From Tortispora ganteri (lineage: Eukaryota), in the NCBI GenBank assembly GCA_003707115.1, contig PPNB01000026.1, positions 1 through 58,577 on the forward strand: DNA of 58,577 nt. The letters are read 5' to 3'. Numbering within the stretch: the first letter of the stretch is position 1; every line of letters starts with the position of its first letter. The notes beneath the pieces are model-generated. The model saw only the letters and a list, made by a program, of their open reading frames with translations, searched no databases and had not been told where the DNA came from. Shown in pieces: positions 54,812 through 58,192 of the stretch. Both the position numbers and the translations under genes were made by a program.

Positions 54812-57800
54812 ATGCAATTTATATCACGATGATTATTTAGTACATCAGCTAAAGACATTAGTGTATTATATTTAATAATATCACTATTTTCAGGAATGAT
54901 GGGTACAGGATTTTCAGCAATAATGCGATTAGAACTATCTAGTCCAGGATATGTATTCCTACACGGGGACAATCAAGTCTTCAATACCGTGGTTTCTGCC
55001 CATGCGATCGCGATGAGTGCGCCAATGTGTGTTGCTGAAGGGTTGACCTTTCTAAATATAAGGTTAGCAAACGAAAATAGTTGCTTAAAGAGCTATCAGG
55101 CTGGTGGAATCAAACTCCATGAGGAAACTCAAACAGCTAAGCTGATAGAAACGGGAGTAATTGAAATTATAACTCAAATTTTATACTTTATTCCTTATCT
55201 AATTTGTTCAACGTTTAGGATAACGAACTTGATACACAATATTCATCACAATGGGATCGCTGTTAAATGAGTTAATAGAACAGTAGCGTTATTTCTCCTA
55301 ATTTTATCATCGGTTTTAGGACTATTTTCAACAAATAACGGAAAATATCACATAGATATCTATAATTGTGCAAGGAACCTAGAACAAAGCGCCCTCTCAA
55401 CGAACTTTGGGATCACCTACGGGAACCAAATTTATTCTAAAATTTATTCAAAAATTTATTGTGTTCCTAATAATTCTAATAATAATAAATTTATTAATAG
55501 AAGACCCTTTAATGGGTGGTGACGGAATTGTCATAGTAGCATACAAAACAATATGCAAAGGACAATAGTTGTGAACTTACAAGTGAGAACCTTTTCCTCA
55601 AAAGCCGATCTTAATAAATTTAGAAATATAGAGATGTTACGTGGCAGCGAAGATAAGAAATCACTCAAATCTATAAATATAAATATAAAAAATATTAGTA
55701 ATATCAAAAATCTGATAACTGCTTATGAATTAATAAAAAGTAATCCTAGTAATATGAATCAAAAAAGAGATAATCTAACTCTTGATGGTTTAACTATGAC
55801 AACTTTACAAGATATTCAAACTAAATTAAAAGCAGGTAAATATCTCTTTAATCCTAGTACTAGAATTCAAATACCTAAATTAATAACCAAGGGAACAAGA
55901 TCTCTAACAATATCTTCCCCTCGTGAAAAAATAGTGGAAAAAGCAATACATTTAGTATTAGAACGCTATTACGAAAACAAATTCTTACCCACTTCTCATG
56001 GATTTAGACCTGGTAAAAGTGTTCATACTGCTATGAAAAATTTAGAAGCAGAATTTCAAAGTGTACATTATATAATTGAAGCTGACTTCTCTAAAGCATT
56101 TGATAATATACAACATAAAACTCTGCTAACTATTCTTAAAAAAGATATAAAATGTGAAAAAACATTAAAATTAATTAAATCTTTACTAAAAGCTGGATAT
56201 ATTGAATTTGGAAATCTGCATAATGAATTAAGTATGGGTATATCTCAAGGTTCAATACTTAGTCCTATATTATGTAATATTTATTTAAATCAATTAGATT
56301 TATATATAGAAAAGTTAAAAAGTGAATATAATATAGGAAATAAAAGACCAAAAAATATAGAATATGAAAAATTACAGAGTAAAGCCAAATACTGAAGAAA
56401 AAAAGGATATGACAAAAGTCAACCTTTAGAATATCAACAATTATTAAAAAATTTAAGATCCATACCTAGTATTGTTCATAATAAGGAATTTATTAGAATA
56501 CAATATGTCAGATATGCGGATGACTTTCTTATAGGAATAGAAGGTAGTTATACAATGGCTAAAGAAATATTAACAAAAATAGATGAATTTATTACTAACG
56601 AATTACAATTAAAATTAAATCCAGATAAAACTCATATAACTAAATATTCAATATATCCTGTCTCATTTTTAGGTTATAATATTATGGCTCCTCATAAGAA
56701 GAATATTATAAAACCTATTGAAGTTATTCCAGTGAATGGTAAACTAATTAGCAGAAGAAAAAAGATCAGAATTAGAATAGGAATGGATTTAAACAAAGTT
56801 TTAGATAAACTAGCTCAAAACGGATTCATTCGAAAAAGGGTTTCCCATTCTAAACATAATAAGCTAATATATAGAGGAACTTTTAAAGGTAATCTAATTA
56901 ATTTAGATCATGCCGATATATTAAAATATTATAATTCTATAGTAAGAGGATTAACTAATTACTATCAATTTGTGGATAATAGAAGTTCATTAGCCTGAAT
57001 TCAATGGCTTATAAAAGAATCTTGTGCCTTAACGTTAGCAAGAAAATTTAAATTAAGAACTTTAGCTAAAACATTCAAAAAATTTGGTAAAGATTTATCT
57101 GTAAAAATAAAAGGCAATATAATATTATCATTTGTTAGTATTAAATATCAATCTGCTTCTAATATCGCATACATTATACCTGAAAAAAAGAATCCTTTCA
57201 AAAGCTTAGAGTCAGTATGAAACGCAAAATTTACCAAATCTAATTTAAATGCATCTTGTATAATTTGTAATAGTAAAGACAATGTTGAAATGCATCACGT
57301 CAGAAAAATTAGAGATTTAAAAAATAAAAATAGTAAATTAGACTTTTTCACAAGACAAATGGCAGCTATTAATAGAAAACAAGTTCCATTATGTAAAAAT
57401 CATCATATTAAATTACATAATAATATGTTAACATCTTTAGAAAGAACATTATTTAAACATAACATAAATAATAAACAATAAATAAATTACTAATATGACA
57501 TATACTTTATCTATAGAAGGTTTAGATTAACCAAGTTTACAATGGAAAGCCGTATGATGGGAGACTATCACGTACGGTTTGGAGGGCAGTAGTCTCTTAA
57601 GGAGCCTCGACTGACCCTACTATTCTTCATGGTGATGCCTGTTACAATGGGTGGATTAACGTTTTAGTCCCCTTATCATTCATTTATTAGGAATAATAAG
57701 GAAAATCGGGTGAATTGTCAGGGAAATCCTCCTAATTATATATAATTAATTAATTAATTATATCCAGGATAATCTGCAGCGAAGCTTATGAAGATATAAA

Positions 57801-58192
57801 TATAAAAGTAATAAGAACGTTCAACGACTAATGAGTGAGTATATATCAACAATAATCTCAACAAGAGCGCCCGACATTTAATATCAAAATTTATTTAATT
57901 TAATAATATGTTTTAATTAAATAGCATATAACATATTATTTATATTAAGATTTGATATATAATGATGAAATAGTCTGATCCATATAGAGTAGGAAGAATA
58001 TATGGAAATATATTTTAAATGAATATATGATAACAAAAATGTTGCCAATTTTTTCCTTCCCCTATTAATTGGGGCATGTGATATGGCATTCCCTAGATTG
58101 AATAATATTGCTGTGTGGCTGCTTGTACCATCGATAATCTTATTTGTATCTTCTGCTGTTGCCGAAAATGGTGCTGGTACTGGTTGGACAGT
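54812..58192 (+). CDS. cox1: cytochrome c oxidase subunit 1, exons 1-3 (54812-55016, 57621-57656, 58042-58192); gene continues across the window origin
   Basis: Spliced translation MQFISRW(TGA)LFSTSAKDI...[39 protein letters not shown]...GTGWTV matches the Cox1 N-terminus. Confidence 0.96.
55017..57481 (+). CDS. group II intron reverse transcriptase/maturase/HNH protein, in frame with cox1 exon 1 (TGA=Trp)
   Basis: [20 protein letters not shown] and C-terminal HHVRK...CKNHH; the ORF-track fragments share one frame and are separated by TGA. Confidence 0.92.
55017..57620 (+). mobile_element. cox1 intron 1, group II
   Basis: 5' GTGCG; domain V GAAAGCCGTATGATGGGAGACTATCACGTACGGTTT near 57545; ends ...CCCTAC; removal restores M-IFF. 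Confidence 0.95.
57657..58041 (+). mobile_element. cox1 intron 2, ORF-less group I intron (omega/L2449-like)
   Basis: Exon ends GGAT; P1 GGAUUAA/UUAGUCC; core GTTCAACGACTA...ATAGTCT; terminal G; removal gives GGF-ANF; near-identical to the rnl intron. Confidence 0.93.

Follow-up and report, generated by a model that had tools for sequence, protein, structure and literature searches.

The omega intron of yeast 21S ribosomal RNA (rRNA), which we take to be inserted at GGGAU^AACAGG (here and below, the caret marks the insertion point), moves by I-SceI homing into that same site. A different route by which group I introns can gain new sites, reverse splicing followed by reverse transcription, has been in the textbooks for decades, and the natural evidence for it consists mostly of old, diverged copies placed in trees of nuclear ribosomal DNA (rDNA). 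Here we describe two nearly identical group I introns, one in the large-subunit rRNA gene (rnl) and one in cox1, in contig PPNB01000026.1, a 58,577-base stretch of DNA (the window, meaning the whole stretch analysed) that behaves as an entire circular mitochondrial genome from a budding-yeast-like fungus. On sequence evidence, we favour reading the cox1 copy as ectopic and derived from the rnl intron.

Omega is described as patchy among yeasts, mosaic in make-up, fast in the gain and loss of its homing endonuclease gene (HEG) and horizontally mobile (PMC4059233). That group I introns can spread to ectopic sites by reverse splicing is backed by experiments with the rRNA introns of Tetrahymena and Didymium, and has been inferred by phylogeny for introns of fungal nuclear rDNA (PMC1299323). 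In the pathway as described, reverse splicing into a foreign RNA is followed by reverse transcription and recombination; the target is set by only 4-6 nt that are complementary to the guide of the intron, and the element moves with exact ribozyme limits (PMC1299323, PMC8393795, PMC4059233). For fungal mitochondrial DNAs (mtDNAs), the low identity among endonuclease genes within a genome, both intron-borne and free-standing, has been taken to exclude their intragenomic proliferation (PMC4894602, PMC4162613).

Twin group I introns in cox1 and rnl

A preliminary description of this DNA reported that cox1 and rnl share an almost identical group I intron without an open reading frame (ORF), with about 200 nt of unbroken identity, and proposed that the two copies be aligned. 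Global alignment confirmed the pair: 360 of 390 aligned columns are identical, the other 30 comprise 8 mismatches and 6 indels that add up to 22 gap columns (14 events in total), and the longest run without a difference extends over 217 nt. All 14 events fall in the P1 loop, distal P2, P8 (mainly its distal loop) or the P9 loop; were they placed uniformly, an event-free run of 217 nt would have P = 1.4e-4. The parts of the two introns are as follows.

57657..58041, plus strand: group I intron copy of cox1, 385 nt, ORF-less, after cox1 coding nucleotide 241 (GGA T^TT)
37465..37837, minus strand: group I intron copy of rnl, 373 nt, at site L2449 (GGGAU^AACAGG)
57694..57910, plus strand: identical core, 217 nt, the reverse complement of 37591-37807, spanning the last part of P2, all of P3-P7, a putative extra helix and the first part of P8
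57667..57672, plus strand: guide GTCCCC of the cox1 copy, pairing with exon GGAT at 57653-57656; the minimum-free-energy fold forms P1
37821..37826, minus strand: guide GTCCCC of the rnl copy, pairing with exon GGGAT at 37838-37842
37828..37832, minus strand: CTGTT, the P10 guide of the rnl copy, located in its P1 loop and pairing with 3' exon AACAG at 37460-37464

The likeness starts at the first intron base and stops at the terminal G. Both copies end in ...AAAAATG, and their 5' flanks read GGGTGGAT^T in cox1 and CTAGGGAT^T in rnl; outside the introns they have only the upstream GGAT in common and downstream nothing, and a hand count finds agreement at 6 of 18 target-site positions. As the preliminary description had it, both copies follow GGAU and neither contains an endonuclease gene, the longest wholly internal frames being 36-39 amino acids (aa). 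The pair thus lacks the traits of an intron moved by its own homing endonuclease, be it an intron-encoded enzyme or a target site like that of the donor.

The surrounding exons and introns are these.

54812..55016, plus strand: cox1 exon 1, 205 nt
55017..57620, plus strand: cox1 group II intron 1, starting GTGCG, its ORF fused to exon 1
57545-57620, plus strand: domain V of group II intron 1 (Rfam)
54812-57481, plus strand: reading frame of group II intron 1 (Pfam RVT_1, Intron_maturas2 and AI2M-like HNH)
57621..57656, plus strand: cox1 exon 2, 36 nt, so that the group II intron ends 36 nt before the group I copy
58042..58193 (end approximate), plus strand: cox1 exon 3, from the Pfam COX1 match of frame 58002-58349
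off the window end and resuming at position 1, plus strand: intron after cox1 exon 3, with a LAGLIDADG frame at 1-684
37307..37464, minus strand: rnl exon on the 3' side of the intron, from the peptidyl-transferase region (RF02541, 141.5 bits, model positions 2476-2632)

Excising 57657-58041 gives GGA T^TT GCC and brings a conserved 19-residue stretch of cox1 back in frame. In rnl the intron interrupts GGGAU^AACAGGCUGAU, and Rfam's large-subunit rRNA model for bacteria restarts with AACAGG exactly at 37464, a site that presumably lies between U2449 and A2450 in Escherichia coli numbering (L2449).

Against a gathering score of 50, the Rfam model RF00028 matched the cox1 copy at 45.6 bits (E = 3.5e-10) and the rnl copy at 49.3 bits (E = 4.4e-11, with P1 and P2 taken into the match), and the matches span only model positions 5/42-158 of 253. 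Helices were written out by hand and their pairing was verified by script. In both copies P1 (GGAU-UAA/UUA-GUCC) is paired at 7 of 7 positions, with the exon U opposite a guide G, and the intron closes with a terminal G; core pairing is complete throughout, with 7/7 positions in P3, 6/6 in P4, 5/5 in P5, 2/2 and 5/5 in P6 and 5/5 in P7. Also paired in both are a 10-bp extension of P5, P6a and P9, together with 6 of 7 positions of P9.1. P8 is a long hairpin in the fold. The cores being identical, the two copies offer no covariation in the core helices. P2 is whole in both copies in spite of a different make-up, being CCUUAU-C-AUUC/GAAU-A-AUAAGG in cox1 and CCUUAUUA/UAAUAAGG in rnl. Between P7 and P3' lies a 37-nt insert (57831-57867) that forms one weak hairpin (-2.1 kcal/mol) and is an insertion in the Rfam model; from this predicted extra helix we read the intron as IA-like. 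Among 487 HEG-carrying fungal mitochondrial introns, those of rnl are mostly typed IA and 81% of those of cox1 IB (PMC7487136).

The guide GUCCCC is unchanged between the copies and has a different fit at each site. With the rnl exon it forms five unbroken pairs (GGGAU/GUCCC, -6.8 kcal/mol by duplexfold); with the cox1 exon it forms four (GGAU/GUCC), followed by a U-C mismatch and one or two more G-C pairs (-5.3 kcal/mol). P10 (CUGUU/AACAG) is found solely in rnl, where it scores -5.1 kcal/mol as compared with +0.5 in cox1; the cox1 copy has CGUUUU at the place of the P10 guide, which makes no pairing with the 3' exon UUGCC. The preliminary claims of a perfect guide match in rnl, a mismatched one in cox1 and a P10 confined to rnl are thus borne out by the pairing energies. 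The copied unit is exactly the RNA that would be excised, and its guide can pair with the new site. A better fit of guide and P10 to rnl, together with a likeness that ends where the intron ends, is what would be predicted for a move defined at the level of RNA.

These limits also bear on a move at the level of DNA, in which a homing endonuclease acting in trans and subsequent repair from the rnl intron, or else illegitimate recombination, would have placed the copy in cox1. The genome does encode several LAGLIDADG proteins in cox1 and cob introns, and ectopic spread through endonucleases of altered specificity has been proposed for fungal mitochondrial introns (PMC7487136). Yet neither copy has an endonuclease, the two targets resemble each other at GGAT only, there is no co-converted exon tract, and the flanking homology that break repair needs is absent; for illegitimate recombination the exact ribozyme limits would have to be a coincidence. 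We consider a move of this kind improbable.

Proposed origin and direction of the move

Public reads from four runs provided contigs of an organism A (runs X1 and X2) and of two relatives, B and C (C from run X7). X1 and X2 account for 97% of the sampled words. Identical in depth throughout, they are probably one data set filed twice and were counted as one. A 296-nt contig of A at depth 1142 (record 6) matches 57428-57723 with 0 differences, running from the group II intron end through exon 2 and over the 5' junction, and another (record 8) opens with the last 30 bases of the intron and continues into cox1 exon 3. The rnl-type contigs of A branch at 57694 and 58041, where the identity of the copies begins and ends. 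Summed word depth is ~2220-2370 over the shared core and ~1140-1390 elsewhere, about twofold, although depth is not a copy number.

An assembly chimera or collapse, which the preliminary description had named as grounds for giving up the pair, was looked for in these reads, and the contigs carry both copy-specific 5' parts. That the second copy is a repeat misplaced during assembly has in its favour only that a single read set seems to underlie X1 and X2. The two copies differ by 14 events and keep P2 paired in different ways; a full-depth contig links exon 2 to the cox1-specific 5' part, and the last 30 intron bases abut exon 3; and the cox1 frame can be restored only with an intron at exactly these limits. 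An artefact is accordingly the least credible of the explanations considered here, and we give it hardly any weight.

In B, a second species, the intron lies in one unbroken 4103-nt contig (depth 1400) that continues into the rnl exon AACAGGCTGATTGTG and therefore identifies it as the rnl L2449 intron. Because this contig is unbroken, whereas those of A break at the repeat, B appears to have no near-identical second copy. The B intron aligns with the window as two pieces, 57692-57878 and 57962-58035, in which 12 letters are mismatched and 15 are gaps; it differs from A at few core positions, and the distal P2, distal P8 and P9 loop differ. At positions 57800, 57802 and 57804, B and C have T and both copies of A have A, which makes the copies of A each other's closest relatives. 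C is itself a close relative, ~4-10% different in cox1 exon 1 and the group II intron, and the T states come from a short contig that holds the intron core.

At the cox1 site, C looks different. One of its contigs (record 22) matches 58043-58500, which comprises exon 3 and the next intron, and the 323 nt upstream of that match are unlike both the twin and exon 2. This upstream stretch ends ...TTAGTCC...CTCTAG and looks like the 3' tail of another group I intron, whose 3' end was searched for in the window, with up to 3 mismatches allowed, and not found. It thus seems that this cox1 position of C, or one adjacent to it, is occupied by a different group I intron, and the intron at the cox1 site may have been exchanged between lineages. 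Places without cover (B outside the intron; C at 56780-57689) were not taken as evidence. According to the preliminary description, an old, vertically inherited cox1 intron at this site in relatives would favour gene conversion over transposition. No orthologous twin was seen in B or C, and the site in C seems to hold another intron.

Since the rnl copy is present in B and a different sequence stands at the cox1 site of C, the cox1 copy would be lineage-specific and derived from rnl. The reverse course, from cox1 to rnl, or independent arrival of both copies by horizontal transfer, is very unlikely. Omega-type introns do pass horizontally between yeasts (PMC4059233), and between A and B the intron is the sole part of a 3.9-kb stretch that can be placed at 80% likeness. 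However, the rnl copy occurs in B, P1 and P10 are tuned to rnl, and both copies of A have three states unseen in B or C; in P2, moreover, position 57677 is T both in the rnl copy of A and in the B intron, as against a cytosine in the cox1 copy.

An older history could also be imagined, in which the intron has long occupied the cox1 site and the cores stay identical through frequent mitochondrial gene conversion from, or with, the rnl copy. High identity would then carry no information on a recent jump. The clustering of differences at ends and loops, with its improbably long event-free run, would fit such a pair; yeasts are known to have mosaic omega introns on which gene conversion has left its mark (PMC4059233), and two 370-nt repeats in recombination-prone mtDNA would be expected to interact. 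On the other side, the close relative C has 323 nt before its cox1 exon 3 that are unlike the twin, and the B intron sits in an unbroken rnl contig, taken as a sign that no second copy shares its 31-mers. The places at which the copies of A vary (distal P2, distal P8 and the P9 loop) also vary between B and A, so hypervariable loops suffice to explain the clustering. We regard an old pair as unlikely, though less so than the other alternatives.

The reading that we prefer, with a probability of roughly 0.6, is that the cox1 copy is a recent, lineage-specific daughter of the resident rnl L2449 intron that arose through reverse splicing and a complementary DNA (cDNA). Excised rnl intron RNA would have entered cox1 RNA by reverse splicing directly after GGAU, whose four bases pair with the guide GUCCCC. 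A mitochondrial reverse transcriptase (RT) would then have copied the product, the group II introns of this genome encoding three ORFs with an RT domain, and the cDNA would have recombined into mtDNA. As cox1 is the only copy of its gene, the new intron must splice at the predicted limits, presumably exactly at 57656/57657 and 58041/58042; it would do so through P1 (GGAU-UAA/UUA-GUCC) and the terminal G, without P10. Following the move, change would have been limited to hypervariable loops: the P1 loop, with loss of the rnl P10 guide, the distal P2, the distal P8 and the P9 loop. The inverted copies may also undergo gene conversion without crossover, which would help to hold the core identical.

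The preliminary description held that the rRNA intron was transposed into cox1 by reverse splicing, plausibly with the group II RT encoded next to it. Its account of origin and direction gains support from the rnl copy of B, the cox1 site of C and the fit of guide and P10, and its mechanism is plausible, although we infer the direction of the move, the RNA route, the RT step and the splicing of both copies from sequence. The RT frame near the cox1 copy means opportunity, not involvement. The fuller scenario, an rRNA-to-mRNA retrotransposition fixed by way of a group II RT and maybe replacing an intron that a close relative keeps, is tentative, and we would put it somewhat below even odds.

Several observations weigh against the reading that we prefer. 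The neighbouring introns, 36 nt upstream and ~150 nt downstream, are retained, and cDNA of a mature mRNA tends to erase such introns. The differences between the copies are strongly clustered, and a conversion tract across an older pair would look the same; as such a tract could mimic identity, the high identity is no clock and the event cannot be dated by it. The seeming other intron of C hints at a replacement that a simple model did not foresee. The comparison consists of one contig each from two relatives, one of them at depth ~4, and the reads of organism A are possibly the source of the window itself, in which case the contigs amount to a re-assembly rather than to a sample taken independently. 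Finally, splicing at either site and the reverse-spliced intermediate are predictions.

The preliminary description also pointed out that the copies form an inverted repeat that could invert about 20 kb. A repeat search returned them as 236-nt arms, 98% complementary, with 19,866 nt between the arms, the second-longest inverted repeat of the genome by arm length. A crossover between the copies would join cox1 exons 1-2, the intron and the 3' part of rnl on one side, and the 5' part of rnl, the intron and cox1 from exon 3 onward on the other. Reasoning from the coordinates, this would break both rnl and cox1, so an inversion isomer could be only a minor form, and the inverted repeat would be a liability for genome stability rather than a switch.

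Wider searches and other features of the genome

Searches for further copies were made in the window and beyond it. No third copy of the intron was found in the window, where the next blastn match is 62.8% identical and at the level of AT-rich background. This best match outside the twin pair is the tail of the second cob intron (32702-33024, plus strand; 371 nt, 86.8 bits), and AT-rich background matches to the intron reach ~50-60 bits. The tail lies downstream of a 410-aa frame without a Pfam match (31477-32709) and is possibly a remote relative within one ribozyme family.

In a scan of contigs for the R element, the exact 21-nt string GAACGTTCAACGACTAATGAG occurred in at least 116 metagenomic mitochondrial contigs; in all, the scan gave at least 116 loci on metagenome contigs, 3 on viral and 2 on prokaryote-genome contigs, 121 of them listed. 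The 121 listed loci are ~64-83% alike over parts of the intron, and none among them proved to be a close relative of it. By best tblastn match, 82 of the 121 lie in a cob context, 13 in cox3 and 2 in nad genes, and 24 have none; among these listed loci nearly every occurrence of the string is in an intron of cob, at a single site, or in an intron of cox3. The spread over several genes indicates that the core motif belongs to a broad family. Among the same 121 loci, rnl flanks gave no blastn match and AACAGGCTGAT was held by 0 of 121, and cox1 flanks were likewise not found. On viral contigs, a loose junction pattern gave 116 matches, which is chance level, and a 20-nt P3-P4 string gave 0 matches.

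The window carries rns, rnl, tRNA genes (24 by ARAGORN) and five group II domain V elements (Rfam), and its Pfam content includes cox1-3, cob, atp6, nad1-6, a VAR1-like protein and several LAGLIDADG proteins, the last encoded in cox1 and cob introns. Pfam assigns the group II ORFs to three RT/maturase proteins and one with a maturase domain only. RVT_1 matches are found in three intron ORFs (815-3541, 4716-7292 and 54812-57481), and the ORF of the cox2 group II intron is the one that matches the maturase domain alone. The cox1 gene starts at 54812, leaves the window end within an intron and resumes at position 1, reaching 9452.

A group II intron is present in rnl too, with domain V at 38491-38565 (minus strand, 68.2 bits), ~650 nt upstream of the L2449 intron, so that rnl and cox1 alike have a group II intron and then the twin group I intron. 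The stretch that these two group II introns have in common is only of domain V size (contig fork 57548-57586).

The sole tRNA-Trp found by ARAGORN (24033-24106, minus strand) has the anticodon CCA, and in-frame TGA occurs 2-7 times per intron-encoded frame and once each in nad2 and nad4. ARAGORN did not find a tRNA-Cys; Rfam lists an extra tRNA at 24152-24224 (plus strand). A repeat family at 41100-46350 (plus strand) consists of four tandem-like units, 66-85% alike and ~1.2-1.5 kb apart; with inverted partial copies at 15400-17140 and 25650-26690, it accounts for a large share of the non-coding DNA. A short GC-rich element (ATGTCCGGG...GGCCGGA) has at least 8 dispersed copies on both strands, at places including 13070-13161, 15075-15166, 41514-41581, 42933-43000 and 46527-48844, and resembles the GC clusters of yeast mtDNAs.

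Comparison with described intron systems

If the fuller scenario set out above is true, donor, daughter and an 'empty' relative are at hand, and a long-proposed pathway becomes directly testable in vivo. With its donor in an rRNA gene and its daughter in an essential protein-coding gene, the pair would serve as a test system for the minimal target pairing, for the dispensability of P10 in vivo and for whether group II RTs serve other mobile RNAs. It would also mean that an ORF-less intron, usually deemed a dead end of the homing cycle, is still able to colonise new genes. In the open-access full-text literature we found no description of a twin group I intron of rnl and cox1 in a yeast.

The closest described system by position is omega, since the GGGAU^AACAGG of the peptidyl-transferase region in which the rnl copy sits is what we take to be the omega site; the comparison is one of insertion site. 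In contrast to omega homing, the endonuclease gene is absent here and the second copy stands in a protein-coding gene. Paralogous group I introns in two genes of one mtDNA are known from Saccharomyces cerevisiae, namely bI4 of cob and aI4 of cox1. Those carry ORFs, are far more diverged and are both in protein-coding genes, whereas the twin described here is ORF-less.

Related group I introns at non-cognate sites in the chloroplast DNA of Pseudendoclonium have been read as the outcome of intragenomic spread (PMC1402334). That system is a green-algal chloroplast with many copies; the present one has two copies in a fungal mitochondrion. With the reverse-splicing cases of rDNA the pair shares a short, guide-matched target and exact ribozyme limits. 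The rDNA cases, however, involve moves from rRNA to rRNA and old, diverged copies; here the move would be from rRNA to mRNA, in a mitochondrion, and the core is 100% identical. Set beside these systems, the twin pair is a new case of a known kind of event, and an unusually clean one.

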